From Armatimonadota bacterium (GTDB lineage Bacteria; Armatimonadota; HRBIN16), in NCBI GenBank assembly GCA_963677485.1, contig OY781964.1, positions 2,304,001 through 2,368,000 on the forward strand: a stretch of DNA of 64,000 nt, written 5' to 3'. This document shows positions 21,895-54,382 of this stretch, in pieces. The position numbers were made by a program, and so were the translations under genes. The notes below the pieces were generated by a model. That model made no database searches. It had not been told where the DNA came from and saw nothing but the letters and a program-made list of their open reading frames with translations. The number at the start of each line of letters is the position of its first letter. Positions within the stretch are counted from its first letter, which is position 1.

Positions 21895-24800
21895 CTACTT
21901 CACCCAGACCAGGCCGTAGTCGGTGCCAATGGTGGGCAGGATGAACTCGCCGTTCTTCAACGGCAGCTTCTCGCCTGTCATCATGTTCACCGCGGAGGTC
22001 GCTTTGGTAAGGCCCATGGCCTTAAGGTTCAGCTTCACAGGAAGCTTTTGATCCTGCTTGCTGAAGCTGCTGACCACGCACATCGCACTGATGCCCTTGC
22101 GCAGATACAGCGAGCAATAAGCCTTCTCCCCCTTGACCGTAACCAGGCTAGAGTTATTCCAGTAAGGATGCCATAACGACTGCTTCTTGCCGAAGGCGTT
22201 CATGGCCTTGAAGATGGCCGCTTCCTCTTTCATCGCATATCCTCGGGCGCGCACCAGAACATCGTGCAACATCGTCATGGTGAAGGCCTCGTGGAAGGTA
22301 AACGGCATATCATAGCACAGGAACTCGTAAGGAACGCCAAACTGGTGCCCCATGAATTCCGCGCGGAAGGCATCCAATGGGATCACCTCGTCGATGGGCT
22401 GGCGTTTGGTGAGCACGGTCAGGTGTTCGGCATCCCAGGTGCTGGTCGCCCAGCCAATGGATGGCGTGACCGCGTGGCCGGAGTTGTGCAGGTTGACCTG
22501 ACCATTCGGCTTGCGCGACTTCACCACCGTATAGAGCCGCCGCAACATGTCGCGGGTGCCCTGGTAATCAAAGGTGGGGGCGATGGTGCCATCAGGTCGG
22601 GTATAACCGCAGCCATGCATCGTGTTGCTGCACCAGAAGGGCAGCGCGGTGCTGTCTAGATAAACCCCGTCGATGTCGTATTTATCCATCACTTTGGCGA
22701 CGCCATCGGCGATGAAATCCTGCCAGACACTCTTGTAGCACACCACATAGTCCTTTTGAGCGGGAGAGCGGGTGTAGCTCTGCCAGTCGGGCTTGACCAT
22801 CACTTCGTCTTTGTAATCCAGCCAGGTGGGCATGATGTCGGATATCTCATAGCCGAAGTAGACCAGAATCTGGAAGCCTTTTGCATGGCAGGCTTTGACC
22901 AGCGCCTTGAGCTGCTCTTCGTGGCCCACCGCTTCCGGCCAGTTCTGTATGTCGGTCCACTGCTCATGGAACACGATGGTCTTGTAACCCATCTGCTTCA
23001 GGTAATCCAGAGTGGGCATCGCACTGGTCGATACACTGATGGTTTTACCCATTTTGTCTATCGAACTATCGAATATGCCGGCGATCTCCCCACCAGGACC
23101 AACATCGGGCTTGGTGACACTGCGATTGGGGCCTGCTTCGGTGATGTTCATGTAGCGGTCCAGCAGCACGGTGTGAGCGTCGGCTGTCCAAGGCGCTGTG
23201 GGCATTTCGGGCTCACGCACCACGTCCGATACGCGTAGTGCCTTTACGCTGAAGCCGGGCTTTTGGATCTGCAGACCTATAGTGTTGGCTGAAGGCAAGC
23301 CGTTCATCAGCCCGGTGAGCGGATATTCCTTCGATAGTTTTCCATCAATGGCGATACGGATGGCGTCACTCCAACTGAGGGACACCAGATGGCTTTCGTC
23401 CTGCTTCCAGTTACATGCCACGTCGCCCAGCATGATGAACTGCCCCTTAGAGAAGAGGTAGGCGCGCATCCCGCGCACATCGATGTTCCAATAGAAAACA
23501 AGCTGATCCTGGCCATTTGTAAGAGTCAGTAGATACCTGTTAAGCAGACCTAGGTTGGCACCATCAGGCACCACCACATTGGGATCGAAGTTCAACTTTA
23601 CCCACATATCCAGCGTGCCTGCGGGGGAATCCAACACCGTGGGCGAGCTGTAGTTGATGTTGGCATCGCTGTTCATCACGGAATCCTGCATCCCATATTC
23701 GCCAGAATGGCAGATGCGGTAGTCCCAGGTGTCCTTGTCTGGCTGCTTCACCGGGGTGGCCTGCAACCCGAAATGGTAGGCCACGCCCTTGGACATCTGG
23801 CCCGATGTAAAGCTGAGAGGGCGGGTGATCATGTTGAAGGCCATGGTCGTGGTTTCTTTACTGGTGTTTTTCACCGTGGCGGCCTTGGCGTCTTTCCCCC
23901 AAGCCCAGTTTTCATCGGTGGTGGTGTAAAGGGCCAGCCCCTTCTCTTCGTCTCCTACCCACAGATAACTCACAAAACTGTTTTCCCAACCCGCGGCAGG
24001 GATCGTCCGTGAGTTCTCAGTGGAAGCGTACGGCGTGGGGAAGTAGTGGCGGTATTTGGCATACTGCCGCTTCATCGGAATCTCTATGGAGAACTTGTCG
24101 ATGGTGACCGGCTTGCTGCCTTTGAAGCTGACATCGATGAAGGCGTTGCCGTCGAAGTCCATGACCACATGCGAACGGGCGGTCATGCTTCCAGCGGAGG
24201 CTACCCCATCCAGGGTGATCTGAGATCCGCTCTTCTTCGTGATGCTCATCTTGCCGTTCAGTGTGACCGGCTTGCCGTCCACCAGCATTTTCATGCTGAT
24301 CGGGCCATTCAATAGCGAGGCCGACTTGGCCGTGACCGCGATGGGGAATGGCGATCCGCCAAAAACATAGCTGCGGCCCCAGGGCGAGATGCTGATGGAT
24401 GCTTTTGTCTGTTTGATTTTCAGAGGTGTCCATGGTGCCAGTACCTTGTCGCTGATACCAGCCTTGGAGCCGACCCACTCGGGCACGGCGGGACGGGTGT
24501 AGCTGAGCTCGGAAGTGGAGACCAGCTTGCCTTGAGCATCCTTGGCCTCGACTACAGCGCGGCACTCCACAAACGGCAGCTTGGCGATGTCCAGCAGGAA
24601 CGAGGCCTTCTGGGCACTCACCGGCTTCGATTCACTGAGCAACCGGTTGTTCTGCATATCCATGATGGTGACGGAGCAGGCGGTGATCCCTTCCAGTTTT
24701 GGAGAGGCAGGCACTACCACATCCACGCCCAGCTTGCCCTGCAGGAAATACCGCCGCAGGCTCATCTTGACGCTGTTCCAAACCTCTTTACTGCCTGTCT

Positions 24801-25758
24801 GTCGGAGCAGCAGCTCGCCAGTTTTTGAATCATTGACTGTAACTTTCCAGTCATACACCCCATCAGCTGGCTCTTTCCCCGGGTCGGCGATGCTGGAATG
24901 CAGCCGTGCGGCTTGGACTCCTTCAGAGGAATCGCCATTGACCGCTTTCCCATCGATACTGAGATCCAGCTTGGCTTTCACGGCGGAGGAGATCCCGCTT
25001 AGTTGAAAGTCGATCCCGCTGACGGACGGTAGCTGCAGGGCACTCACCCCGCCGGTTTTGTTTGCCAGCACCAGGTGGCCGAACTTACCCGGCTGGTGGA
25101 ATCCGCCGGTTTCTAGCAGCGGTGCCCAGGTCAGGTTGGTGTCCGGACCTTTGCGATCCAGGCCCACATTGAACCCGATCATCCTGTCGGCACTGCTGGG
25201 GCTTATGCCCACGGTGCTGAAGGGAATCGCCATCTCAATATACCAGGCGCCATCACCTGCCGATGTTTTCGCAGTCCATACGCCGTTCCAGGCCGCGTCT
25301 TTGTCCTTCGTATCGCAGACACTGCCCACGGCGTTGCAAGAAAACTGATAGCTGGTCATGTTGGTGTGCAGTGGGTCGATGAATAGCTCTACGCCCTCAT
25401 CCTGCCAGATCGCACCATCGCGCTCCCGTTGCTTTGCGATTGGTGCCTGCCCTTTGGGAAGTGCGACGGACACCGCCAGGCATATATTTTGCGAGTCATA
25501 ACCCACCCATGCGGTCTGCGTGGTGCTGGGCACGTTGTTGCTTCCCAGCACGTGAAAGTTGTTAGTCTTTACGGCACCATCCCATTCGCCAGGTGTAAGC
25601 ACGCCGTCGATGGTGGGGGCTTTTGCCATCGGGGTGATGCGCATCGTAGGCGCATCCGGGCTCTGAGCATCGTAAGCGTGCGTGACGGCCGGTATATAGA
25701 GGGCCAGTATTGCACAGTACAAGCTGAGACAGCTTGATTTTAGTCGGGGCATCATCAT
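21895..25758 (-). CDS. Large secreted CBM9-like + DUF6067-like glycoside hydrolase with LamG-like insert
   Basis: APTIDG.L..GEW, D.VELFIDP, W.IEMAIPF (CBM9-like); PWTP, DGVYLD; GTLDMWVK (LamG-like). Confidence 0.65.
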   Translation of the reverse strand: MMMPRLKSSCLSLYCAILALYIPAVTHAYDAQSPDAPTMRITPMAKAPTIDGVLTPGEWDGAVKTNNFHVLGSNNVPSTTQTAWVGYDSQNICLAVSVALPKGQAPIAKQRERDGAIWQDEGVELFIDPLHTNMTSYQFSCNAVGSVCDTKDKDAAWNGVWTAKTSAGDGAWYIEMAIPFSTVGISPSSADRMIGFNVGLDRKGPDTNLTWAPLLETGGFHQPGKFGHLVLANKTGGVSALQLPSVSGIDFQLSGISSAVKAKLDLSIDGKAVNGDSSEGVQAARLHSSIADPGKEPADGVYDWKVTVNDSKTGELLLRQTGSKEVWNSVKMSLRRYFLQGKLGVDVVVPASPKLEGITACSVTIMDMQNNRLLSESKPVSAQKASFLLDIAKLPFVECRAVVEAKDAQGKLVSTSELSYTRPAVPEWVGSKAGISDKVLAPWTPLKIKQTKASISISPWGRSYVFGGSPFPIAVTAKSASLLNGPISMKMLVDGKPVTLNGKMSITKKSGSQITLDGVASAGSMTARSHVVMDFDGNAFIDVSFKGSKPVTIDKFSIEIPMKRQYAKYRHYFPTPYASTENSRTIPAAGWENSFVSYLWVGDEEKGLALYTTTDENWAWGKDAKAATVKNTSKETTTMAFNMITRPLSFTSGQMSKGVAYHFGLQATPVKQPDKDTWDYRICHSGEYGMQDSVMNSDANINYSSPTVLDSPAGTLDMWVKLNFDPNVVVPDGANLGLLNRYLLTLTNGQDQLVFYWNIDVRGMRAYLFSKGQFIMLGDVACNWKQDESHLVSLSWSDAIRIAIDGKLSKEYPLTGLMNGLPSANTIGLQIQKPGFSVKALRVSDVVREPEMPTAPWTADAHTVLLDRYMNITEAGPNRSVTKPDVGPGGEIAGIFDSSIDKMGKTISVSTSAMPTLDYLKQMGYKTIVFHEQWTDIQNWPEAVGHEEQLKALVKACHAKGFQILVYFGYEISDIMPTWLDYKDEVMVKPDWQSYTRSPAQKDYVVCYKSVWQDFIADGVAKVMDKYDIDGVYLDSTALPFWCSNTMHGCGYTRPDGTIAPTFDYQGTRDMLRRLYTVVKSRKPNGQVNLHNSGHAVTPSIGWATSTWDAEHLTVLTKRQPIDEVIPLDAFRAEFMGHQFGVPYEFLCYDMPFTFHEAFTMTMLHDVLVRARGYAMKEEAAIFKAMNAFGKKQSLWHPYWNNSSLVTVKGEKAYCSLYLRKGISAMCVVSSFSKQDQKLPVKLNLKAMGLTKATSAVNMMTGEKLPLKNGEFILPTIGTDYGLVWVK

Positions 25759-25889: not shown

Positions 25890-28800
25890 CTATTTCACCC
25901 ACACCAGGCCGTAGTCTATACCGGCTGTAGGAAGAATGAACTCACCATCTACAAGCTTGAGTTTCTCGCCTGTCATCATGTTCACTGCAGAACTTGCGTG
26001 GCTCAAGCCCATCGCTTTGAGGTTAAGCTTAACGGATAACTTCTGAGCACTTTTGCTGAAACTGCTCACCACACACATGGCACTGACGCCTTGTCGCGTG
26101 TATAAAGAGCAATAAGCCTTATCGCCTTTGACGCTTACCAGGTTGGCGTTGTTCCAGTATGGTTTGAACTTGGATTTCTGTTTGCCAAAGGCGTCCATCG
26201 CTTTGAGAACCAGCGCCTGCTCCTGAAGGGTATACCCGCGAGCGCGCACGAGGGTGTCATGAAGTAATGACATGGCGAAGGACTCGTGAATGGAGAACGG
26301 CAGGTCATAACTCAGAAGCTCCTGAGGAATACCTTGTGGGCGACCCATAAACTCGGTTCGGTAAGCATCCAGGGGTATTAACTCGTCGATGGGTATTTTG
26401 TCCGTCAGTATCGAGAAGTGCTCGCCATCCCAGATGCTGGTCGCCCAGCCGGTGGCAGGAGTCAGCATATAACCGGAAGCGTGAAGGTTAACTTGCCCTT
26501 CCGGCTTCTTCGATTTGACGATGGTATACAAGCGGCGCATCATTTCGCGAGTTCCATGGAATGGCACGGTCGGTTCGATGGAACCATCGGGTTTCACATA
26601 ACCGCATCCATGCATCGTGTTCTTGCAGTAAAACGGTAAGGCGGTGCTGTCCAGATAGACACCATCAATATCGTATTTGTCCATCACTTTACTCACACCA
26701 TCGGCTATGAAGTCCTGCCATACACTTTCGTAACAAACCACATAGTCCTTCTGTTGGGGTAAGCGGGTATAGCTCTGCCAGTCATCTTTTAACATGACCT
26801 CATCTTTGTAGTCCAAGAAGTGAGGCATGATATCTGAAATTTCAAAGCCGAAGTAGACGAGAAGCTGAAGCCCTCGGTCGTGGCACGCCTTCACCAATGT
26901 CTTCAGCTCTTGTTCGTGCCCCACCGCCTCAGGCCAGTTCTGAATGTCTGTCCATTGTTCATGCATGACGATGGTTCGAAAGCCAAGTGACTTCAAGTAG
27001 TCCAAGGCCAGCATCGTGGTTCCTGAAACGCTCATGATGGTGCTGGTGGGACCAGGCGAGTAGGTCACACTGCCGGTGAGTTCACCCTTGGGGCCAACTG
27101 TCGGCTGTGTGCTGTAATTCACCGGCCCTGTTGCAGTGATGTTACTCAGGTTGTCCAGCAGCACGGTGTTTGAATCGCGGGTATAGGCGGTTTTGGGCAT
27201 AGAAGGTTCTCGGATGATGTTGGAGACGCGAACCTCGCCCAGACCGAAGCCCGGACCCGACATTTGCAGGCTTAAAGTTTTCGCCTCAGATCCCCCGTTC
27301 ATCAGGCCAACGAATGGATAATCCGTCATCTGACGGCCATCTACTGCCACACGGACAGCATCTCCCCAGCTCAGCGACAAATGGTGAAACTCGTTCTGCT
27401 TCCACTGGCAGGGGATGTCACCCATCATAGTAAATTTCCCATTGGACAGGTGATACACCCTCATCCCTCGTAACAGCACATTCCAATACAGATATAAGGC
27501 GTCTTGGCCATTCGATATAATCAGCAGTTGCTGGTTATACTGCCCTCTTTCGGTGCCTTCGGCGAACACCACATTGGGATCGAAGTTCAGCTTCACCCAC
27601 ATATCAATAGTGCCTTGAAGGCTGCTCAACAGCGTCGGGCTTTTGTATGTCAGCAAAGCCTGTTTGTTGAACACCGTATCCGTGATGTGGTAGTCGGTTG
27701 TGTGGGTCAGCCGGTAGTCCCAGGTGTCTTTTTCGGGCTTCTTAACCGGTGTGGCTTGCAGCCCGAAGTGATACTCCACGCCTTTGGCGAGTTGTTCTGT
27801 ACTGAACTTGAGTGGAGCTGTGACCATGTTGAAGGCCATCGTGACGGTCTCTGCATTGGATTGCCATACCGCCGCAGCTTTGGAATTGGCTCCCCATGCC
27901 CAGTTTTCGGTGGTGTTGGAGTATAAGGCTAAGCCTCTGTCTTCATCCCCCACCCATAGGTAGCTGACAAACCTGGCATCCCAGCCAGCATCTTCAATCT
28001 TCCTTGCATTTTCAGAGGATGCATACGGAACTGGGAAATAGTGCCGGTATTTGGCATATCGCTGCTTGATCGGTATTTCGATGGAGAACTTGTCGATGGT
28101 CGCTTCTTGCTTGCCCTTCAGGGTCACATCGATATAGGCGTTGCCATCGAAATCTATCACCACATGGGAGCTCGCTGTGAGGCTGCCAGCACTGGCTGTG
28201 CCATCTAGAATCACCTGAGCCTCCGTTTGCTTGGTGATGCTCATGCGGCCTTTCAGGGTATACGGCTTGCCATCAACCAGTATATGCATTGAGATCGGGC
28301 CGTTTAGTATAGAGGCTTTGTTGGTAAGCACCGAAGTTGGGAAGGGCGATCCGGCGAACGTGTAGGTTCGCCCCCAGGGTGAAACACTGACCAGCCCTCT
28401 GCTTTGCTTCACTTTTAGCGGGGTCCATGGGGCGACCACCTTGTCGCTGATGCCGGCCTGTGAGCCTAACCACTCAGGCAAAGCGGGACGTATGTATTTT
28501 TGTTCGGCAGTTATCAGTACTTTGCCATGTTCATCCTTCGCTTCGAACACAGCTTTGCATTCAACGAAAGGGAGTTTTGAGATATCGAGAAGGAAGGATG
28601 CTGCTCGCCCGCTTAGTGGCTTTGACTGCGTCATGAGTTGATTTCCGGCCATATCCAGTATGTTCACAGTAGCTGTGGTGGCGTTAGTGGTGGCTTCAGT
28701 TTCCGGTATCGCAGCATCTACACCGAGTTTCCCTTGCAGGAAGTATTTCCGAATGTTTAGTATGACATGTTGCCAAACCTCCACACTGCCCGAAATACGA

Positions 28801-29753
28801 TCGAGCACCACACCGCTTTTGGGTTCTTTGACCACAAGGTTCCAGTCATAAACACCATCAGGTGTCTCACTATTTACTTCGGGAAGGTTGATCGCTAATC
28901 GTGCCGGTAGAACACCATCGAATGCCTTCTCACCCAGCTTAGTACCCTGCGAGTTGAACTCTAGCATGGCATTCACAGGTGCCGAGTGACCTTGAAGCAC
29001 GAAGGCTATCTCGGTCGACGATTGAGCTTGCAAGCAACTCATGGACCCATTCTGACTGGCTAATACCAGGTGACCGAACTTGCCAGGCTGGTGAAAACCG
29101 CCTTGCTCCAACAAGGGAGCCCATGTGTAGTTTCGATCTGGGTTCTTCCGGTTCAGACAGACGTTGAAGCCCAACGTTGTGTCGCCATCAATCTGATTCA
29201 AACCAATAGTCTTGAGAGGTATCGCCATCTCGATATACCAGTTGCCATCAGCTACCGGTGTTTTTGCTGTCCATTCGCCGTTCCAAGCCGCGTCTTTATC
29301 CTTTGTATCGCTGATGCTGCCCACGGCGTTGCAAGCAAACTGGTAACTGGTCTTGTTGTCATGCATCGGGTCGATAAAGACCTCTATGCCCTCATCCTGC
29401 CAGATCACACCATCGCGATCGCGCTTCTCTGCAGTTGGAGTGTTCGCGCCATTAAGGCGTATACTGGCGGCAAGATACAGGTTGTGGGCGTCATAGCCGA
29501 TTCGAACGGGTTGATTGGTTAGAGGCACGTTGTTGCTGCCCAGCACATGAAAGCTGTTCGTTCCGGCGGCACCGTCCCATTCGCCCGGCGTGAGCACACC
29601 GTCGATGGTGGGTGCCTTGGTCATAGGGACAATACGCAGCAGGGGCGCTTTTGAATCGGACGTATCATAAGCATGCATTATTGATGGCATGAATAGCATT
29701 CCAGCGGCGGTGATAGACGCAATTACCCGTGAGGCTGAGGCAGTTGATGGCAT
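25890..29753 (-). CDS. Paralog of 21895-25758 (CBM9-like + DUF6067-like GH)
   Basis: Colinear and the same ORF length (1287 aa), with shared motifs. Confidence 0.65.
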   Translation of the reverse strand: MPSTASASRVIASITAAGMLFMPSIMHAYDTSDSKAPLLRIVPMTKAPTIDGVLTPGEWDGAAGTNSFHVLGSNNVPLTNQPVRIGYDAHNLYLAASIRLNGANTPTAEKRDRDGVIWQDEGIEVFIDPMHDNKTSYQFACNAVGSISDTKDKDAAWNGEWTAKTPVADGNWYIEMAIPLKTIGLNQIDGDTTLGFNVCLNRKNPDRNYTWAPLLEQGGFHQPGKFGHLVLASQNGSMSCLQAQSSTEIAFVLQGHSAPVNAMLEFNSQGTKLGEKAFDGVLPARLAINLPEVNSETPDGVYDWNLVVKEPKSGVVLDRISGSVEVWQHVILNIRKYFLQGKLGVDAAIPETEATTNATTATVNILDMAGNQLMTQSKPLSGRAASFLLDISKLPFVECKAVFEAKDEHGKVLITAEQKYIRPALPEWLGSQAGISDKVVAPWTPLKVKQSRGLVSVSPWGRTYTFAGSPFPTSVLTNKASILNGPISMHILVDGKPYTLKGRMSITKQTEAQVILDGTASAGSLTASSHVVIDFDGNAYIDVTLKGKQEATIDKFSIEIPIKQRYAKYRHYFPVPYASSENARKIEDAGWDARFVSYLWVGDEDRGLALYSNTTENWAWGANSKAAAVWQSNAETVTMAFNMVTAPLKFSTEQLAKGVEYHFGLQATPVKKPEKDTWDYRLTHTTDYHITDTVFNKQALLTYKSPTLLSSLQGTIDMWVKLNFDPNVVFAEGTERGQYNQQLLIISNGQDALYLYWNVLLRGMRVYHLSNGKFTMMGDIPCQWKQNEFHHLSLSWGDAVRVAVDGRQMTDYPFVGLMNGGSEAKTLSLQMSGPGFGLGEVRVSNIIREPSMPKTAYTRDSNTVLLDNLSNITATGPVNYSTQPTVGPKGELTGSVTYSPGPTSTIMSVSGTTMLALDYLKSLGFRTIVMHEQWTDIQNWPEAVGHEQELKTLVKACHDRGLQLLVYFGFEISDIMPHFLDYKDEVMLKDDWQSYTRLPQQKDYVVCYESVWQDFIADGVSKVMDKYDIDGVYLDSTALPFYCKNTMHGCGYVKPDGSIEPTVPFHGTREMMRRLYTIVKSKKPEGQVNLHASGYMLTPATGWATSIWDGEHFSILTDKIPIDELIPLDAYRTEFMGRPQGIPQELLSYDLPFSIHESFAMSLLHDTLVRARGYTLQEQALVLKAMDAFGKQKSKFKPYWNNANLVSVKGDKAYCSLYTRQGVSAMCVVSSFSKSAQKLSVKLNLKAMGLSHASSAVNMMTGEKLKLVDGEFILPTAGIDYGLVWVK

Positions 29754-46222: not shown

Positions 46223-47512
46223 ATGCCTAAGTTTCTGCTCTTATTGCTGCGTTTGCTGGCATTTCCGCTTAAGGTGTACATGATGCTTGCTTGGTGGTTC
46301 CGAGGTCGAACGAAATGGATTGACCAGGTACTTTATCCCGGCATGTATTACCCATTGGTGTTAACCAGTCTGATTGGCAGTCTATACGCACAGTTGAACC
46401 AAGTGTCGAGTGGCCTTACCCCTCACAATGCGTTGCTGAATGGGTTGTCAACATCACCTATCCTATGCGGGTTACTTGCTTTGATCATGCTGGTGCCAAC
46501 GGCTATTGTGCTGGCGCGTGGCCGAACGCAGTTTCTATTAGCTCTGTTCATCTGCTCATCAACTGTGAGTGCTTTGTCGGGCAAATGGTACGCCGTGGTG
46601 GCTGTGGTCATTGCATATGCGTTACTCGTTGGGTTGCTTAAAAGACTCATGGTAAACGGCGATCTGATGATAACTAAACTCCACTTTGTGCTGGCGCTGA
46701 CCCTGATGATTCTCTTGGTAGTTGCCGTTGTCATGCCTTACACCCGTACATATGTCTATTTTGGAATGGTCTGTGTGATGGTGCTACTGTCGTACTGGTG
46801 TATCATCCCCTCGAACGTATCGACGTCTCCACGAATATCAATGATCCAACGGGCAAGGTCCACCGATGATGCCTGTCCACCATTTGCCAATGATGTGGCT
46901 ACAGTAGATGGCTGGGTGCAGGCTACACCAATCGAGTTTTGGGAACATCTGTGCCACAACTGGGAAATGAGTATCGTACGAAAAGATGAAACTACCGATA
47001 TTGACATGCAGTATATAAACCCACTCGATGAAGGTGTAGAAATTGCATGTGAAGCTCGATGGAGCCGTTTACTTAAAGAAAGTGAACTCGACCCAGATGA
47101 AGACGAATACGAATATGATGAGATATGGCACAGTTTCATCACCGGAAAGCGCGAGGTCAACGCGCATTGTGACGGTGGCAAATGTAAATGGCAGCTAGAT
47201 GAACTCAAGCCAAAATATGCCGCTAGCGATGTGACGGATGAATTAATGGCTCAGATGGACCACATCCTACAGGACAATATCACTCTGCTGAAGCAGATGC
47301 CGGTGGAGATGGTGCTGAACAGCCAACCCATAGTTTTATGTTACGGAGAGCCTAGGTCGAAAGTACATACGCTGTGGGAGTTGCAGACGCTTGACGGTGA
47401 GATTATGGTCAAGGAAAAGCCTACAGTCAACGTGACCGTATATACAGTTGCGTCTGGTAGCGACGGACAAAAATCTCTAGCGATTAAAACTGAGATGGTG
47501 CAACTTGGCTAA
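46223..47512 (+). CDS. Hypothetical membrane protein (multi-TM N-half, acidic soluble C-half)
   Basis: About 6 hydrophobic segments; lower GC. Confidence 0.6.
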   Translation: MPKFLLLLLRLLAFPLKVYMMLAWWFRGRTKWIDQVLYPGMYYPLVLTSLIGSLYAQLNQVSSGLTPHNALLNGLSTSPILCGLLALIMLVPTAIVLARGRTQFLLALFICSSTVSALSGKWYAVVAVVIAYALLVGLLKRLMVNGDLMITKLHFVLALTLMILLVVAVVMPYTRTYVYFGMVCVMVLLSYWCIIPSNVSTSPRISMIQRARSTDDACPPFANDVATVDGWVQATPIEFWEHLCHNWEMSIVRKDETTDIDMQYINPLDEGVEIACEARWSRLLKESELDPDEDEYEYDEIWHSFITGKREVNAHCDGGKCKWQLDELKPKYAASDVTDELMAQMDHILQDNITLLKQMPVEMVLNSQPIVLCYGEPRSKVHTLWELQTLDGEIMVKEKPTVNVTVYTVASGSDGQKSLAIKTEMVQLG

Positions 47513-47756: not shown

Positions 47757-47838
47757 TATCCGTCCTTTAAAACCCATCCCCCCCTCAAACCGGACGCTGA
47801 ACCCCATAAACCGCCCATAGGATATGGGGGTGAACCAT

Positions 47839-48543
47839 ATGGTGAAACGTATAGCGAAGCTTTTTGAAGCAGGCCACTACCCCGAGCGCGGTCTTCAGAT
47901 CGAACCTCAGCAGATATCCCAAATCGTACAGCAGTTCCAGGCACCCATCCCCATCACGGTGGAGCACCTTGGGGGCCAATGGCGGCTAGGGGAGCTGGTA
48001 GAGGTGTGGCCGCACGGCGAGGAGCTGCTGGGCAGGCTGGAGCTGAGCACAGAGGCCGACGCGCTGCTTCAACGGCTGGGTATCTTCGGGCTGAGCGTGG
48101 GGCTAGACCCGGGCTGCGAGCGTCTGCTTGAGCTCTCGGTGACCGAGGCGCCGCGTGTGCCGGATGCCCGTATCTTTCGCAAGCAACAGGATCGCATATT
48201 TGGAGGTGAAATCCTGATGGAATCAACACATGAACTGCTTCATGTGGACCGGCAGTTGGAGCAGTGGCTTCAACAGGGGCGAATCACACCGGCGGCAGAG
48301 CCGTTCGCGCGTGCTCTGCTGGAGATGGGTGAGACGATGCAGTTTCGAGAGGGTCAGAACAGCGTGGCGGCTTTGTTCAGCCAGTTTGTGTCCGCGATGC
48401 CGCAGGCGGTGGTGTTCGGCGAGCTCACTCCTGGACAGGCAGCGGCGGGCGATGGGCTGAGCAGCACGCAGCGAGAGTTTCTGGCGAAGCACTGGTCGGA
48501 TGTGCCTGCGGAGCAGATTGCAGCGCATCTGGACCGAGAGTAG
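47839..48543 (+). CDS. Mu gpI-like prohead protease/scaffold
   Basis: LFEAG.Y, P.PI.VEH, LSVG, L.ELSVT..PRV; C-terminal G.ITPA scaffold-like segment; lies upstream of the capsid gene. Confidence 0.65.
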   Translation: MVKRIAKLFEAGHYPERGLQIEPQQISQIVQQFQAPIPITVEHLGGQWRLGELVEVWPHGEELLGRLELSTEADALLQRLGIFGLSVGLDPGCERLLELSVTEAPRVPDARIFRKQQDRIFGGEILMESTHELLHVDRQLEQWLQQGRITPAAEPFARALLEMGETMQFREGQNSVAALFSQFVSAMPQAVVFGELTPGQAAAGDGLSSTQREFLAKHWSDVPAEQIAAHLDRE

Positions 48544-48552
48544 GAGGCGAAA

Positions 48553-48960
48553 ATGGCACGACTATCTGAGAACTGGGACACCCGCATGAGCGAGGGCCGG
48601 GTGATCTGCTATCCGGTGAAAGCCGATGCTGTGATCTACACCGGGGCGATACTGGTGCTGGACGCCGGTTATGTGCGACCCTCCGGTGCTGCGGAGACGG
48701 GCCTATTTGTAGGAATCGCCGCAGACAACGTGGATGCCACTGATCATACGAGCGGGGATTTGAAGGTGCGGGTGATCAAAACCGGCGCCCATAACTTCCA
48801 GGCCACTGGGCTGGTGGCAGCCGACCTTGGCAAGCTAACCTACGCCCCCAACGACGCCAGCGTCAGTCTGAGCGACACCGCTGGCCCCGAGGTGGGTTAT
48901 CTGGTTGGGCTGAACGCCAACGGCACGGTACGGGTGCGTATCGACCGCTCGGTATGCTAG
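48553..48960 (+). CDS. Head decoration/cement protein (DUF2190-like)
   Basis: YPVKA...IY.GA.....AGY.........FVGIA...VD; lies between protease and capsid; AGGAGG RBS. Confidence 0.65.
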   Translation: MARLSENWDTRMSEGRVICYPVKADAVIYTGAILVLDAGYVRPSGAAETGLFVGIAADNVDATDHTSGDLKVRVIKTGAHNFQATGLVAADLGKLTYAPNDASVSLSDTAGPEVGYLVGLNANGTVRVRIDRSVC

Positions 48961-48975
48961 CGAAGGGAGAAGGCG

Positions 48976-49902
48976 ATGTTATCTAAATCCGAAATCGGTC
49001 CGCTTCTTCAAGCGGGGCTTCGAGCAGACTTCCATCGGGCTTACAGTGCCGCGATGGCCGATCTGCTGTATGGGCGTTTGGCCACGGTGATCAGCACCGA
49101 CCGCAGCGTGCAACGTTACGGCTGGTTGGGTGATGTGCCCACCATGCGCGAGTTTGTGGATGAGCGTCAGCCCGCCGGGCTACGCAGCCACGAATACAGC
49201 ATCGAGGACAAGGTGTGGGAGAGCAGCATCGCCGTCGACCGGCGTGCGATGGAGGACGACCAGTTGGGGGCTATCCGGCTGCGGGTGCAGGGGCTGGGAC
49301 GTGAGGCGGCCCGTCACAAAGACCGCGTGGTGGTGGGGTTGATCACCGGCGGTTTCACCGATCTTTGCTACGATGGCACGCCGCTGATCGGCAACACGCA
49401 TAGCGAAGGCGACAGCGGCACCCAGAGCAACGTGGGCAGCGATGGGCTCTCCGCAGAAAGCCTGCAGACGGCCATCGCCGCGATGATGGGTGTGAAGAAC
49501 GACCGAGCGGAGCCGCTGGGCATCCGGCCGGACTTGATGCTGGTGGGGCCTCAACTGATGTTCACCGCGCGCGAGCTGCTTCAAAGCGCGGTGGTGGTGG
49601 AGAAGGGCGACTCGTTGCGCACCCCCTACACCAACGTGCTGAAGGGGCTGGTCGATCTGGTGGTGTCGCCGGACATCACCGACACCAGTTGGTATCTGAT
49701 GGATACCAGTCGTCCGATGCGCGGCGTGATCCTGCAGGAGCGCAGCGATGTGCCGGTGGAGCTGGTGTCGTTGGAGGATGCCTCCCGCAGTGAGAGCGTG
49801 TTCCTGCGCGACCAATACCTGTTTGGCGTGCGAAGCCGGTTCGGCGCCGGTTACGGCCTCTGGCAGGCCGTGTGGGGCAGTACAGGCGGTTCCGGCGCGT
49901 AG
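48976..49902 (+). CDS. Mu-like major capsid protein gpT
   Basis: YGWLGDVP.MRE...ER, Y.I..K.WE..I.V.R...EDD.LG, CYDG......H, PLGIRPD.L.V.P.L, WYL.DT..P, F....YLFGV..R...GYG.WQ. Confidence 0.9.
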   Translation: MLSKSEIGPLLQAGLRADFHRAYSAAMADLLYGRLATVISTDRSVQRYGWLGDVPTMREFVDERQPAGLRSHEYSIEDKVWESSIAVDRRAMEDDQLGAIRLRVQGLGREAARHKDRVVVGLITGGFTDLCYDGTPLIGNTHSEGDSGTQSNVGSDGLSAESLQTAIAAMMGVKNDRAEPLGIRPDLMLVGPQLMFTARELLQSAVVVEKGDSLRTPYTNVLKGLVDLVVSPDITDTSWYLMDTSRPMRGVILQERSDVPVELVSLEDASRSESVFLRDQYLFGVRSRFGAGYGLWQAVWGSTGGSGA

Positions 49903-50023
49903 GATGAGCCTCGCCCTGATGGAATATCGGGCGATCTGGTGATATTGGGGGTCAACACCGGCGCAGAATGTATATCCGCGCCGGTGTTTCTGTGACAATG
50001 AGCGATCGAAAGGGAGGTGCGAG

Positions 50024-50311
50024 GTGGACCAACAGGCGTTCACGCAAGTGCTGACACTTCTGAGCGCAGTGCTGTCGGCACAGTGGGCTTTCACACGCTA
50101 TACGCTGCGCGCGTTGGAGCGTGTGATCCAGGCGCAGGAGGCCACGCTGCAGCAGCGGCTGGTTTCGGTGGAGTCGGCGGTGCAATGCAACGCGGAGGCG
50201 ATGTCCGAGCTGCGGGAGACGATCCGTGAGCTGAGCATGGTCATCGCCCTGCGGAACGGCAGCCCGACACTGGAGCCATCTGCACATCGTATGAAGGAGG
50301 AGACGAGATGA
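50024..50311 (+). CDS. Small TM + coiled-coil protein (holin/BhlA-like candidate)
   Basis: GGAGG RBS; one N-terminal hydrophobic helix then a coiled coil. Confidence 0.45.
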   Translation: MDQQAFTQVLTLLSAVLSAQWAFTRYTLRALERVIQAQEATLQQRLVSVESAVQCNAEAMSELRETIRELSMVIALRNGSPTLEPSAHRMKEETR

Positions 50312-50484
50312 ACCTGCTGACTAGTTGCTTCGGCAGAAAGATTTTGGAGGCTGCGAAACAGGCTTTGATTACACACATCAGTGAAGAGGTACGCCGGCTT
50401 GTGGACAAATACGCTCACGACCCTGAAGTGCTCTGCCAACAGCTTACGCAGTTCATCCTGCGCACGCTGAAGCTGGTGCAGTGA
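50308..50484 (+). CDS. 58-aa hypothetical protein (not in ORF track)
   Basis: AGGAGG RBS; ATGA overlap upstream and TGATG overlap downstream; MNLLTSCFGRKILEAAKQALITHISEEVRRLVDKYAHDPEVLCQQLTQFILRTLKLVQ. Confidence 0.65.
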   Translation: MNLLTSCFGRKILEAAKQALITHISEEVRRLVDKYAHDPEVLCQQLTQFILRTLKLVQ

Positions 50485-50879
50485 TGAGCATCACCGTGAC
50501 GCTGGCCGATGTGAAGCTGCTGGCTTATGAAGAGGGCAGCACCAATGACGCTGCGGTGACGGCTTTGATGGAGCTACTTGTTCCTGCGATCGAGGAGCGG
50601 CTGGACAGCAGCCGCGTGACCGAATACTCCAGCACCAACTGGGTAAAACTGGCCGTCACCAAGATCATCGCAGGTGAGTGGGTGGCACGACGGGCCAGGC
50701 TGGTCGATCCTGAGAGCACCGTTGTTGACAGCACGGCCAGTTTGCCGTTAGCCGACCGGCGCGATGACCCCAGCGGTTTGATCAGCGCGGGCTGGAACGC
50801 TCTGCTTCCGCTGGTGAAGGACGAGTTCTTCTGGCTGGGTTCCGCCGAGTGGCTGGAGGGTTTGGATATGGAGGGGTAA
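50484..50879 (+). CDS. Putative head-tail connector/adaptor (gp6/gp36-like)
   Basis: VTLADVK...., D.....L......IE..L, VKLAV..I.A; typical size and position. Confidence 0.5.
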   Translation: MSITVTLADVKLLAYEEGSTNDAAVTALMELLVPAIEERLDSSRVTEYSSTNWVKLAVTKIIAGEWVARRARLVDPESTVVDSTASLPLADRRDDPSGLISAGWNALLPLVKDEFFWLGSAEWLEGLDMEG

Positions 50880-50959
50880 GGGGCGAGGAGATGAGGAGAG
50901 CAACCATCGTTTCCTACTCGTCCTACTCATCTGACTTGTCGTACCTGCCAAAGCCCCTA

Positions 50960-51340
50960 TTGCCACTGTCCGGGGCGGTCTGTGCGCAGGCTTACGGCTA
51001 CGGAAGGTAATAGACCGCGCCGGTCTAGCGGTTAGCCAACTAGATTGGTTTCGGGATCAAGACCGGCGCGGTTAGGGGAAAACCGCCCCGGACATAGGCA
51101 AATCTTCCCTGCTAAAGCCCAGAATGGCTGTGTCCGGGGCGGTCGGTGCGCAGGCTAGCGGCTGCAATGGGCTCGAGACCGCGCCGGTCTGGCGGATAGC
51201 CATGAAGATATGTTTCGGCAATCAAGACCGGCGCGGTTAGGAGAAAACCGCCCCGGACATAGGCAATCAAGGCCGGCGCAGTGGGAAAACCGTCTTGTTC
51301 CCATCCTCCCCATCCGTGTCATCCGCGTAATCCGTGATTC
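50960..51340. repeat. Composite repeat cluster R1
   Basis: Two R1 modules plus atccgtg periodic repeats. Confidence 0.85.
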
Positions 51341-51403
51341 AGACAGTCCGGGTATGCCCCCGGTCTCAGGCAATCAGGCCTGCGCTTTGCTACAATAGGG
51401 TTG

Positions 51404-52684
51404 ATGACAAACAGCGATATTCCACATAGTGTGCCCCTCTCTTCAGAGGGCCTTTGCGCGGGTTACGACCGGCGGGAGGTGCTGCGTAACATCAGCTTTG
51501 AACTGCACTCTGGCGAGTTTGTGGGCATCATTGGTCCCAACGGATGCGGCAAATCTACGCTCATCAAGGCGCTGACAGGTATCCTGAAGCCCACTGGCGG
51601 ACGTGTTCTGGTTCAAGGACAGCCGTTGAGCGAACTGAGCGTGCGCGAGGTGGCCAGACGGATGGCGGTGGTGCCTCAGCATGAGCAGGTGGCGTTTGGC
51701 TTCAGTTGCCGCGATGTGGTGATGATGGGCCGCGCCGCCTACACAGGCATGATGGGCCACTATACAAACAAAGATAAACTGGCCGCTCAGGCAGCTATGG
51801 AGCGTATGAGTGTTTGGGAGTTTCGCGACCGGCCTGTGCAGCAGCTTTCGGGCGGTGAACGCCAACGGGTGGGTCTGGCCCGAGCGTTGGCGCAGCAGTG
51901 CGACCTGCTTCTGCTGGATGAGCCGACCTCGCACCTGGATATCAGCCACCAGATCAGCCTGTTAAGCGAAATACAGAGCCTGCGTAACGAGGACGGGCAC
52001 ACGGTAGTGGCGGTGTTGCATGAGATCAACATGGCAGCCGAGTTCTGTGACCGCATCCTGGTGATGCATAAAGGCAGCGTCGTAGCGGATGGCAGCCCGG
52101 CTGAGGTGATCACCCCGCGGATGTTGAAGCGGGTGTTCGCACTCGATGCGCTGGTGCGGATGAACCCGGTGACCGGGCGTCCGCATATCCTGCCCAAAGG
52201 TTTGCCGGTGGTCGACACGGCTGGCGAGGGTGCGCGGGTGCATATGGTGATTGGCGGTGGCAGCAGCACGCCTTGGATGGCCGCGCTGGTGTCTGCCGGA
52301 TACAGCGTATCCGCCGGGGTGGTAAACCTGCTGGACAGCGACGAGCAGAGCGCGCATGAGATGGGTGTGGAGCTGGTGGTGGAAGCCCCTTTCACGCCGA
52401 TCAGCGAGGAGAGCATCCAGCAGCTTCGCGATGTGGTGCGTTTGTGCCGTGCTGTGGTGGTTGGTCCTGCCTGGCTGGGTTTCGGTAATCTGGCCAACCT
52501 GCATGTGGTGCTGGAGGCGCTTCGGAGTGGTGCCTGTGTGCTTCTGGCCGGTGCCGATCTGGAGGGGCGCGACTACACCGACGGTGAGGCCAGCCGCATC
52601 TGGGCGGAGCTGATCCGTTTAGGAGCCGTGGTGGTAGAGACGCCCGATCAGGCCGTGGCCATATTGCAACAGCGCATCGGTTAG
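51404..52684 (+). CDS. Iron-siderophore/cobalamin ABC transporter ATPase (FepC/BtuD-like) with C-terminal extension
   Basis: GPNGCGKST, LSGGERQR, LLLDEPT.HLD, LHEIN; extra domain HMVIGGGS. Confidence 0.85.
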   Translation: MTNSDIPHSVPLSSEGLCAGYDRREVLRNISFELHSGEFVGIIGPNGCGKSTLIKALTGILKPTGGRVLVQGQPLSELSVREVARRMAVVPQHEQVAFGFSCRDVVMMGRAAYTGMMGHYTNKDKLAAQAAMERMSVWEFRDRPVQQLSGGERQRVGLARALAQQCDLLLLDEPTSHLDISHQISLLSEIQSLRNEDGHTVVAVLHEINMAAEFCDRILVMHKGSVVADGSPAEVITPRMLKRVFALDALVRMNPVTGRPHILPKGLPVVDTAGEGARVHMVIGGGSSTPWMAALVSAGYSVSAGVVNLLDSDEQSAHEMGVELVVEAPFTPISEESIQQLRDVVRLCRAVVVGPAWLGFGNLANLHVVLEALRSGACVLLAGADLEGRDYTDGEASRIWAELIRLGAVVVETPDQAVAILQQRIG

Positions 52685-52751
52685 TAGGTTGCAGCCCGGT
52701 GACATCCCCTGGGCACGTTAATCTCCTGATTGGCATATCGGCATGATTCTT

Positions 52752-52782
52752 GGGGGAGGTTTTTCGGAACCTCCCCCTTTTT
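52752..52782 (+). terminator. Rho-independent terminator after the ABC ATPase
   Basis: ggggaggtt-loop-aacctcccc followed by TTTTT. Confidence 0.7.
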
Positions 52783-52818
52783 GCGTATCTATGGTTCTGG
52801 TGAAACAGAGGTGCGGCG

Positions 52819-53925
52819 ATGGAGTTCTTTTCCGAGATTTGGCGGCGTCTGCAGCGCCGAAAAATGACGCATGAGCAGGTGCCTGTGTGCGACGGGATAG
52901 GCTGGAGTGGCGCGCTGGTCTGGGATGGCGGATTGAAACAGCCCAGCCTGACGGAATGCCTTGAAATGCTGCAGGACGCCCAGGTTCAGGCGGCGCTTCA
53001 GACCAAGAAGCTAGGCGCTCTGAACGCCGAGTGGCATATCGAGCCGGGTTATGACACCGAAGCCAGTCTGCGCGCAGCCCGACTGGTGAAGTATGCTCTG
53101 GAGCAGTTGAAGGGCAGCCTGGGGCGAGTGCTGTGGAACGCAATGGATGCGCTGGCGTTTGGTTATTCCGTGCAGGAGATCAACTACCGGTTGTGTCAGA
53201 AGGGGGAATTCGCCGGCAGCGTGATCTGGCAGAGTGTCAAGGCGAAGGACCCTCGGTTGGTCAGTCTGAAGGTGGATGAGTATCTTAACCTCACCGGTAT
53301 CGGATGCACCGATGCGGAGGGGCGCGAACTTCAGGTGCCGATGGAGAAGTTCGCGGTGTATATCTACAACCCGCGGTTTGAGAACCCCACTGGTCAAAGC
53401 GACTTGCGAGCCGCTTTGATGCACTGGAAGGCGAAACGGCGGCTGCTTCAGAGCTGGCAGCTCAGCCTGGAGCGGTTTGGCGCCCCTACCATGAAGGGCA
53501 CATTGCCGCGTAATGTTTCCGACTACGAACGTGAGGAACTGCTGCATGTGCTGCAGAGGGTTCACGAAAACAGTGCGATTGTGGTTCCAGACGACACGAA
53601 GGTTGAGCTGCTGGAAGGGCAGCCAAGCATCAACAACAGCTACCTGACCGCCGTGCAGTTTCACAACAAAGAGATCGCCAAAGCGATCATGGGGCAGACC
53701 CTCACCACAGACGAAGGATCGCGGGTGGGCAGTCTGGCTCTGGGCAAAATCCACTTCGAGGTGCTGCAGTTCTACATGCGCTGGCTGAGGCGTGAGCTGG
53801 CGGAGCAGCTGGTGGAGGAACAGTTGATGCGCCGGCTGGTGGAAATGAACATCCCCGATGCCGCGGTTCCTAAGTTGGTTTGGGTCGAATCGAAACAGGA
53901 GGCGGATAGTGAGCTCCATTCTTAG
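52819..53925 (+). CDS. Mu gp29-like portal protein (DUF935), short form
   Basis: D..V...LQT.K, DAL.FGYSV.EI, NP.G.S.L, W...LERFG.P, N.EIAKAIMGQTLTT..G..GS.ALG..H. Confidence 0.85.
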   Translation: MEFFSEIWRRLQRRKMTHEQVPVCDGIGWSGALVWDGGLKQPSLTECLEMLQDAQVQAALQTKKLGALNAEWHIEPGYDTEASLRAARLVKYALEQLKGSLGRVLWNAMDALAFGYSVQEINYRLCQKGEFAGSVIWQSVKAKDPRLVSLKVDEYLNLTGIGCTDAEGRELQVPMEKFAVYIYNPRFENPTGQSDLRAALMHWKAKRRLLQSWQLSLERFGAPTMKGTLPRNVSDYEREELLHVLQRVHENSAIVVPDDTKVELLEGQPSINNSYLTAVQFHNKEIAKAIMGQTLTTDEGSRVGSLALGKIHFEVLQFYMRWLRRELAEQLVEEQLMRRLVEMNIPDAAVPKLVWVESKQEADSELHS

Positions 53926-54382
53926 TGTTCAAGATCGTGATCATCTGATCAATCACCCTACGGTGAAAGCCGCGCTCGCGAGCCGGTTCAAGCGTCTGTT
54001 GTCGGATGTCCGTGCCAAGGGATATCCCCTGCTGGTTTGGGAGGTATACCGCAGCGAACAGCACCAGCAGGAGCTCTATTGCCAGGGTCGGAGCAGTGTC
54101 TACCTTCGCAAGATGGGTGTGCCAGCCAACCTGATCGCACAGGCCCGATTGATGGGATACAACCCCGATAAGCCTCGCATCACCAAACAACGGTTGGCTG
54201 GGATGCACTCCCAAGGCCGTGCGATGGATTGTGTATGGCTTATCAAGGGCCAGCCGAGTTGGAATGCACCCGACGAGTGGTGGCAGTGCTACAGCGCTGT
54301 GGCTAAACGCCTGGGCCTGAGCTGGGGCGGCGACTGGAAGATGCGCGACATGGCGCATGTTCAGTGGGAAAAGAAGCTGTGA
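53909..54382 (+). CDS. M15 family L-Ala-D-Glu peptidase (endolysin-like)
   Basis: E.YRS...Q..LY.QGR, H..GRA.D, WGGDW...D..H.Q; AGGAGG RBS, GTG 53909 overlapping the portal stop. Confidence 0.85.
   Translation: MSSILSVQDRDHLINHPTVKAALASRFKRLLSDVRAKGYPLLVWEVYRSEQHQQELYCQGRSSVYLRKMGVPANLIAQARLMGYNPDKPRITKQRLAGMHSQGRAMDCVWLIKGQPSWNAPDEWWQCYSAVAKRLGLSWGGDWKMRDMAHVQWEKKL

Follow-up and report, generated by a model that had tools for sequence, protein, structure and literature searches.

A candidate domesticated phage head-and-packaging module dispersed in an Armatimonadota genome

Why does an Armatimonadota chromosome carry genes for building a phage head among genes of its own? The question arises from a stretch of 64,000 nucleotides, here called the window, at positions 2,304,001–2,368,000 of the single 5.22 Mb contig (C1) of genome G000. 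The window holds a gene for a Mu-like major capsid protein (gpT) within a run of small head genes, p239 to p132, followed after host repeats and an ABC ATPase gene by genes for a short portal and an M15 cell-wall peptidase. A first-pass annotation had suggested that these genes form a gene transfer agent (GTA) or another long-domesticated capsid system, in preference to a decaying prophage. Our preferred reading, to which we give a probability of roughly 0.6, is that a phage module for head formation and DNA packaging was domesticated long ago and passed down vertically, and that the region holds the greater part of it. The description that suits it best is a domesticated packaging module confined to the head, either GTA-like or resembling a fixed capsid-forming satellite. 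The open reading frames named in the first-pass annotation are present where it placed them and all head and module genes are single-copy in G000. The module has a GC content of 0.57–0.64, compared with 0.48–0.64 over the whole window.

Conservation, descent and selection

We compared G000 with 17 other genomes of its family, which falls into three genera (the window's own, with G000, G001 and G002, and two others called g2 and g3), and surveyed 401 genomes across the phylum. The sampled genomes are kin, so the family and phylum counts are not independent. The source names of the homologues are all Armatimonadota (Chthonomonadetes, Fimbriimonadia and Chthonomonas). gpT was found in 16 of the 17 other family genomes and the large terminase subunit (TerL), whose gene lies outside the window, in all 17. 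The gene order p239-p135-gpT-p95-...-p132-(ABC)-portal is found again in all three genera, and TerL adjoins the NFACT gene in 13/17 family loci and gerM in 7/17, as seen in flanks of 1.5 kb.

Compared with the window, gpT is 97% identical in G001, 82% in G002, 58–62% in g2 and 54% in g3, tracking or exceeding the housekeeping protein MnmG of the host (90%, 77%, 55–58% and 53–54%, in the same order). The values for TerL, taken against G000, are 95%, 73%, 47–49% (full length) and 45–46%. In quick trees, each of a single gene, supported clades of gpT and TerL are found again in the MnmG tree: (G000, G001, plus G002 where present), (G004, G006), (G009, G005), (G016, G008), (G013, G010, G007) and (G021, G036). 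A further clade, (G023, G038), is common to the gpT and MnmG trees, both of its genomes being without a TerL row.

Ratios of nonsynonymous to synonymous substitution rates (dN/dS) were calculated by the Nei-Gojobori method for nine genome pairs, with sequences extracted from high-scoring segment pairs. Left out were gpT and NFACT of the pair G000–G001, where the extracted piece contained a stop, and three G000–G002 genes with saturated dS. The ratios were 0.04–0.08 for gpT, 0.04–0.09 for the portal, 0.05–0.15 for TerL, 0.08–0.23 for p239, 0.02–0.11 for p135, 0.00–0.08 for p95 and 0.03–0.35 for p132, for which a single value exceeded 0.16. All module genes together span 0.00–0.35, with a single value above 0.23, while the host genes span 0.05–0.15 (mnmG 0.05–0.07, NFACT 0.08–0.15). 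Within each pair dS is similar in module and host genes.

The nearest phage records are distant, at no more than 38% identity for gpT and no more than 32% for TerL (Thermus phages P74-26 and P23-45), and among viral contigs the identity does not exceed 44%. When viral sequences were included in the tree, the clade of the window's family contained no viral row. Near-universal conservation in the family with a single copy in G000, clades shared with a host marker, dN/dS far below 1, the finding of an orphan terminase such as the first-pass annotation had expected and the lack of nesting among the sampled phages all favour the long-term domestication that the first-pass annotation had proposed over a decaying or recent prophage.

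Across the phylum, gpT was found in 132 of the 401 genomes and TerL in 133 (both in 115, gpT alone in 17, TerL alone in 18 and neither in 251). Some families are well filled (f5 6/6, f18 10/11, f21 24/28, f28 20/29) and some are empty (f4 0/27, f26 0/20). TerL and the portal are each present in five of five complete genomes from five other families, all five with gpT matches. The distribution is patchy between families (f10 22/47, f13 10/24, for example) and some f28 genomes hold several copies, as might be expected if the module were a satellite or phage currently mobile and spreading horizontally through the phylum. We think this very improbable, given that TerL has the same host neighbours in three genera, that supported gpT and TerL clades recur in the MnmG tree and that dS equals that of host genes; nor was any integrase match or close viral relative found.

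Parts present, damaged and missing

The features of the module and of the host sequence within it are collected in Table 1. The first gene, p239, gave only a weak match by sequence, to a scaffold region (phrog_976, residues 143–211, E 1.8e-4). A search with its AlphaFold model (12 homologues, pLDDT 74) led to the assemblin proteases of herpesviruses (Foldseek E 6.6e-5, prob 1.0), whose fold is that of phage prohead proteases, and all 12 aligned homologues keep His48 and Ser91 unchanged. The fold match, the invariant residues and the scaffold match together support the earlier view of p239 as a protease-scaffold.

Table 1. Features of the head genes, portal and peptidase and of the host sequence between them (coordinates in the window).
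Feature	Coordinates	Strand	Assignment and evidence
p239	47824..48543	+	Supported as a prohead assemblin-fold serine protease (N-terminal half) joined to a helical C-terminal half that is scaffold-like
p135	48553..48960	+	Small virion structural protein; phrog_1731, E 2.8e-21, full length
gpT	48976..49902	+	Major capsid protein (Mu-like family); PF10124 E 9e-65; phrog_371 E 8e-68
Hairpin, gap between capsid gene and p95	49956..49986	+	GC-rich, then TTTCTG; read from the sequence, unflagged by the terminator scan
p95	50024..50311	+	Small conserved protein; mildly hydrophobic N-terminus, remainder helical
p58	50308..50484	+	Small protein; seen in the window's genus only: G001 (frameshifted) and G002 (74% identity)
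p132	50481..50879	+	Head-to-tail adaptor, gp6-like, by predicted fold (pLDDT 73)
Host dispersed repeats	50880..51400		549 BLAST pieces genome-wide, depth up to 247
ABC ATPase	51401..52684	+	Host-type type-II importer (heme/corrinoid class) with C-terminal extension; PF00005 E 6.6e-38
Terminator-like hairpin	52752..52777	+	3' of the ABC gene; 11 pairs, 7 GC, then TTTTTG
Portal	52819..53925	+	Short Mu-type portal, 368 aa; PF06074 E 4e-64
M15 peptidase	53858..54382	+	M15 (VanY-like) cell-wall peptidase; PF13539 E 2.6e-8; endolysin PHROGs E 5.7e-18

The family matches in Table 1 confirm the gpT capsid protein and the pair of short Mu-type portal and M15 endolysin. Residues 49–355 of the portal match the solved portals of JBD30, Mu and P74-26/G20c, and its length across family relatives is 363–368 aa. 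The 5' end of the M15 gene overlaps the 3' end of the portal gene by 68 nt, and an M15 gene also follows the portal in G001 and in G006, a g3 genome. The product of p135, which is kept beside gpT in relatives, had been called a decoration protein; that it is a virion structural protein stands, and it may plausibly decorate the capsid.

Searches of Pfam, PHROGs and NCBIfam gave no match for p95, p58 or p132. The last of these, the connector of the first-pass annotation, is an adaptor by predicted fold. VIA-align matched it to the neck of P74-26 (Z 8.6), HK97 gp6 (Z 7.7), the Mu neck (5ydn, Z 6.1 and 5.4), YqbG (Z 6.0) and an RcGTA virion chain (Z 5.4), values that are middling for a helical protein; neck or adaptor chains of phages make up most of the 50 rows in the fold list, judged from their titles. 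With Foldseek nothing matched at E <= 0.001, and an atlas search gave DUF3199 as a lead. The idea that p95 is a transmembrane or holin-like protein was unsupported, its top 19-residue hydropathy being 1.34. p95 is 47–62% identical in g2 and g3, and the sole lead to its function, to be taken only as a lead, is a language-model match to Mu releasin (0.90).

Genes of other kinds occur at this point of the cluster in relatives. Between p95 and the adaptor, genus g2 carries a gene for a 354-aa protein (L018 8149–9213) with no family match, 66–77% identical within g2; a homologue in G000 was not found. G229 encodes a Laminin_G_3 lectin-like protein between the capsid gene and the adaptor.

The first-pass annotation had seen no terminase, tail, integrase or replication gene nearby. 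Among the large open reading frames at 32.9–64 kb of the window no match to such families was found, but a genome-wide search for orphan terminase and tail clusters revealed a single Terminase_6-type TerL at C1 94,084–95,391, on the minus strand and 2.26 Mb from the window module; tail matches came only from elements not conserved in relatives. The neighbours of TerL are host genes (NFACT, gerM, amiC, GH31 and a P-type ATPase). Its Walker A, Walker B, coupling and nuclease Asp motifs are kept in 10 of 10 aligned sequences.

The description of the module as Mu-type holds for the capsid protein and portal, whereas TerL and the adaptor resemble those of the Thermus phages P74-26 and P23-45. With Mu-like phages (Mu, B3, D3112, Mushu) the module shares the gpT capsid, a Mu-family portal, a protease-scaffold fusion and a gp36-like adaptor fold, and these phages have the nearest phage capsids, at 34–38% identity. 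It differs from them in having no gpF beside the portal, no tail and no Mu-type terminase, in a portal of 368 aa compared with the 512 aa of the Mu portal chain, and in the position of the portal gene downstream of the capsid gene. The lone Mu_F domain of G000 is in an unrelated prophage. The likeness to the Thermus siphophages P74-26, P23-45 and G20c lies in the ATPase and nuclease domains of TerL (E 1.5e-19 and 5e-13 to solved chains), in the portal core and in the P74-26 neck, the best fold match of the adaptor. These are complete long-tailed phages with a different capsid family, however, and their TerL is only 29–32% identical.

A number of observations weigh against the reading of the module as a domesticated and maintained system. 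One concerns TerL, which in G000 has a TAG at codon 394 (C1:94210–94212), where G001 has CAG and G002 CAA. With it goes the last of the nuclease motifs, the conserved EHDDLV, and solved nuclease domains align to residue 412 of the full-length homologue. The G000 protein thus has its ATPase and the first two nuclease motifs but an incomplete nuclease domain. The 42 codons past the TAG are still in frame and conserved, and TerL reads through to 426–448 aa in G001, G002, G004, G006, G007, G008, G009, G011 and G015. As the downstream codons are conserved in frame and part of the nuclease is lost, the amber codon is, assembly error aside, recent and probably disabling. The genes had been described as intact, and those in the window are, but not every part of the system in G000 is.

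Other points on the same side concern the relatives. p58 is frameshifted in G001, and G004, a genome 97% complete, has an intact TerL, while gpT and the portal were not found in it, which suggests that TerL may not depend on the head genes. Some f28 genomes have 2–4 gpT copies, indicating that mobile relatives exist. A profile of the small terminase subunit (TerS) from five relatives matched in 0/18 family genomes, although with no positive control in the set this empty result shows little, and neither the TerS profile nor one for the lambda FII-like protein of relatives had a match among the six-frame open reading frames of G000. Genus g2 does have an FII-like gene after the adaptor. No conserved tail genes were found in G000 with the five tail/neck Pfam families searched, and Phage_connect_1 had no match there. 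The shared clades, moreover, come from single-gene quick trees. The head genes, ABC gene and portal are covered by Logan contigs of two metatranscriptome runs, which belong to two studies; being 90–95% identical, these contigs mean that at most the genes of a relative occur in RNA libraries, a weak hint of expression in a relative, and they may stem from contaminating DNA and a relative. Nothing can be read from the stretches that they leave uncovered.

The missing tail, TerS, integrase and replication genes, the amber codon in G000, the p58 frameshift in G001 and the head genes not found in G004 would all fit with a cryptic, functionless prophage remnant that has yet to decay. Such a remnant is highly unlikely, in our view. 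The genes are intact across genera in which MnmG is just 53–58% identical, they are present in 16–17 of the 17 family genomes, their dN/dS is low with a host-like dS, and neutral remnants would not retain catalytic motifs. On the reading of ancient domestication, the system of G000 itself looks recently impaired, by the amber codon at 394 and the lack of a detectable FII-like gene.

Neither at 32.9–64 kb of the window nor in the sequence that flanks the genes in relatives did Pfam give a match to an integrase, primase, replication, lysogeny or regulator gene. The Mu transposase DDE_2 gave no match in G000, but nor did the control of that search.

From contiguous clusters to possible functions

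What the module may once have looked like is suggested by four other families of the phylum. G229, G149, G157 and G021 each have one contiguous cluster of TerS, TerL, portal, protease-scaffold, p135, gpT, adaptor, a protein of about 100 aa that is weakly lambda FII-like, and an M15 or M23 peptidase. Host genes lie beyond, and no tail genes and no integrase match were found in these four clusters. G144 and G305 have a split cluster, like G000. A hand tally of the 59 genomes with TerL and gpT on the same contig put the distance between the two at no more than 10 kb in about 32 genomes and at more than that in about 27. In G021 (C17, L025, 11740–12825) the head cluster, in other respects contiguous, contains a gene on the opposite strand for a host-type PocR-GGDEF diguanylate cyclase.

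The ancestral form was probably just such a contiguous, tail-less cluster, running from TerS and TerL through portal, protease-scaffold, small virion protein, gpT and adaptor to an FII-like head-closure protein and a peptidase. In the window's family this cluster would have been broken up, leaving TerL alone between gerM/amiC and the NFACT gene and shifting the portal downstream of the head genes, behind the host ABC ATPase, with TerS no longer detectable. Operon scattering is a reported trait of Chthonomonas calidirosea (PMC4959169), so the dispersal need not be adaptive; by analogy, it may partly reflect a scrambling of operons typical of the lineage.

Each part can be given a step in the assembly of a particle. 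The protease-scaffold, capsid protein and portal would build a procapsid, which the protease would mature. TerL would drive DNA in through the portal, the adaptor, with the FII-like protein in most relatives, would close a 'tail-ready' head, and the peptidase would aid its release. Conservation of the parts suggests that most carriers most likely still build DNA-filled, tail-ready heads.

How these heads might serve the host is best approached through the systems that the module resembles. Like the GTAs or viriforms RcGTA, BaGTA, VSH-1, Dd1 and VTA, it consists of structural and packaging genes that derive from phage and come with no functions for replication or integration, is inherited vertically under purifying selection, is spread over several loci and has a cell-wall peptidase associated with the cluster. 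With genes up to 2.26 Mb apart, it would be unable to carry its complete gene set to another cell. Unlike them, it belongs to Armatimonadota, has no tail genes found and, in the window's family, no TerS found. The RcGTA set is of HK97 type, while the module combines a gpT capsid, a Mu-type portal and a P74-26-type TerL.

The module could be a true GTA whose tail genes, and perhaps TerS, lie elsewhere in the genome, too divergent or too dispersed to be found. The adaptor and FII-like proteins imply an interface for joining a tail, known GTAs are reported to be multi-locus (PMC5026251, PMC12946183), and just five tail/neck families were searched in G000. Yet the contiguous clusters of the four other families end at the peptidase with no tail genes before the host genes, and the sheath, tube and tape-measure matches in G000 all fall within elements seen in 0/17 relatives. 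A true GTA is therefore distinctly unlikely, and the GTA identity suggested by the first-pass annotation, faced also with the empty TerS search and the TerL amber codon, was not borne out.

The phage-inducible chromosomal islands that form capsids (cf-PICIs) offer a second comparison. These satellites are reported to release tail-less, DNA-filled capsids that are later joined to foreign tails (10.1101/2025.02.11.637232). The module is like them in that it covers morphogenesis and packaging of the head only, including neck proteins but no tail, and the clusters of G021, G229, G149 and G157 contain the cf-PICI head gene set (TerS, TerL, portal, protease, capsid and neck, no tail). It is not a mobile island of 10–15 kb with integrase and genes for regulation and replication: none of these genes was found in the flanks, and it has fixed host neighbours, is inherited vertically and in the window's family is split over distant loci.

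It is conceivable, though unlikely, that the module is a fixed satellite-like system that borrows tails ('tail piracy') and either moves host DNA or blocks phage. The gene content of its contiguous form is that stated for cf-PICIs (10.1101/2025.02.11.637232), and G000 holds several tailed elements able to supply tails. No integrase, primase or regulator match was found in the flanks, however; single-copy vertical descent beside fixed host neighbours is not the habit of mobile satellites, and since the tailed elements are not conserved in relatives, there is no fixed partner. We would venture, as a tentative and rather doubtful proposal, a helper-dependent GTA, in which ancient, host-owned, tail-less Armatimonadota capsids, filled with DNA and ready for tails, would take these from any phages active in the cell or its community and move host DNA, maybe sabotaging the phages as they do so. 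If true, this would be a new lineage of viriforms and the domesticated counterpart of capsid-forming satellites.

The genes stay conserved although no delivery device was found, which could also mean that they were exapted for some purpose besides DNA transfer, as an abortive-infection or decoy defence titrating phage tails or packaging, for release of DNA in biofilms, or as a compartment for protein or nucleic acid. The TerL kept in G004, where head genes were not found, and the tight coupling of the portal to the host ABC ATPase in g2 and g3 would fit. The presence together of portal, terminase and adaptor nevertheless indicates DNA packaging, and the cluster showed no known defence domains, though no PADLOC search was made. 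There is little to commend exaptation over a packaging module retained by the host.

To our knowledge GTAs are known from a handful of lineages and are all tailed, and we know of none described in Armatimonadota. A full-text literature search, supplements not covered, found no description of such an element in Armatimonadota (Armatimonadetes) or among GTAs. Genome papers on the phylum (one of them PMC4959169), in the passages on which we draw, mention just ordinary prophage or genome disorganisation, and a recent survey of DNA packaged in capsids describes GTAs from Oscillospiraceae and Ruminococcaceae, with no mention of Armatimonadota in the part of the text consulted (PMC12946183). The module is a candidate domesticated viral particle system, or viriform, and a candidate host-owned capsid or gene-transfer particle. 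It would differ from known GTAs as a phage-derived module for head and packaging in which no tail genes were found. Vertical descent and purifying selection appear to have maintained it over many families of a poorly studied phylum, and it appears to have been disabled recently in at least one genome. The stages of its dispersal are on show, from contiguous clusters to three loci megabases apart, and provide a natural series for studying the domestication of viral capsid genes. They also raise the question of whether tail-less capsids can serve a host, through borrowed tails or otherwise.

Surroundings of the module and other phage elements

The host repeats, BtuD/FepC-like ATPase and terminator that the first-pass annotation placed between adaptor and portal were all verified. 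The repeats at 50880–51400 sit where genus g2 carries the FII-like gene and a dockerin-type gene. The ABC ATPase scores 272 bits against the heme model NF010068 (cut-off 261) and 333 bits against the corrinoid model NF007082, under the cut-off of 537, and its C-terminal domain is labelled PF27219 in precomputed annotations. No permease gene was identified within the surrounding 10 kb. In g2 and g3 the ABC gene is 3–27 nt from the portal gene, or overlaps it by 4 nt, and the two are almost translationally coupled (L018–L023). We considered the ATPase as a packaging component and dropped the idea, as it scores as an ordinary heme/corrinoid importer ATPase and is missing from between adaptor and portal in G011. 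The hairpin between the capsid gene and p95 is possibly an attenuator, to judge from its sequence.

G000 also carries other phage elements. Three are HK97-type elements without a terminase (C1 647129–663719, 1784436–1800998 and about 1473800–1491800), with the order portal, protease, capsid, adaptor, M15 peptidase and tape measure. Over 16.6 kb two of the copies share 94.5% identity, the third being about 70% identical, and their M15 genes are 39–41% identical to that of the window. A myovirus-like prophage at about 4,940,000–4,985,000 encodes a sheath and a tube, together with a tape measure of 1070 aa and a MuF-domain protein of 1541 aa. As controls for conservation, the capsid gene of the HK97-type elements and the sheath of the prophage were each found in 0/17 family relatives. 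The N-terminal part of the sheath is 80% identical in G021, of another family, which with the 0/17 in the window's own family suggests a phage that crosses family boundaries. Neither the sheath, tube and tape-measure cluster at 4.94–4.985 Mb nor the HK97-type elements were accepted as a source of tails for the module, as they are not conserved in relatives.

Upstream of the head genes lies an RND efflux operon, and downstream of the peptidase a gene for a large secreted dockerin-type protein and then mnmG. Between the RND pump and the head genes is an open reading frame of 429 aa (46223–47512) with no family match and a low GC content (about 0.49). It looks like a recent insertion, as G001 has just 187 bp from AcrB to p239. 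On the minus strand, two tandem open reading frames of exactly 1287 aa each occupy 21895–25758 and 25890–29753. Dispersed host repeats, present in roughly 100–290 copies genome-wide, fill intergenic stretches at 47.5–47.7, 50.9–51.3, 54.5–55.1 and 58.7–59.8 kb of the window and produce depth spikes in public sequencing runs.

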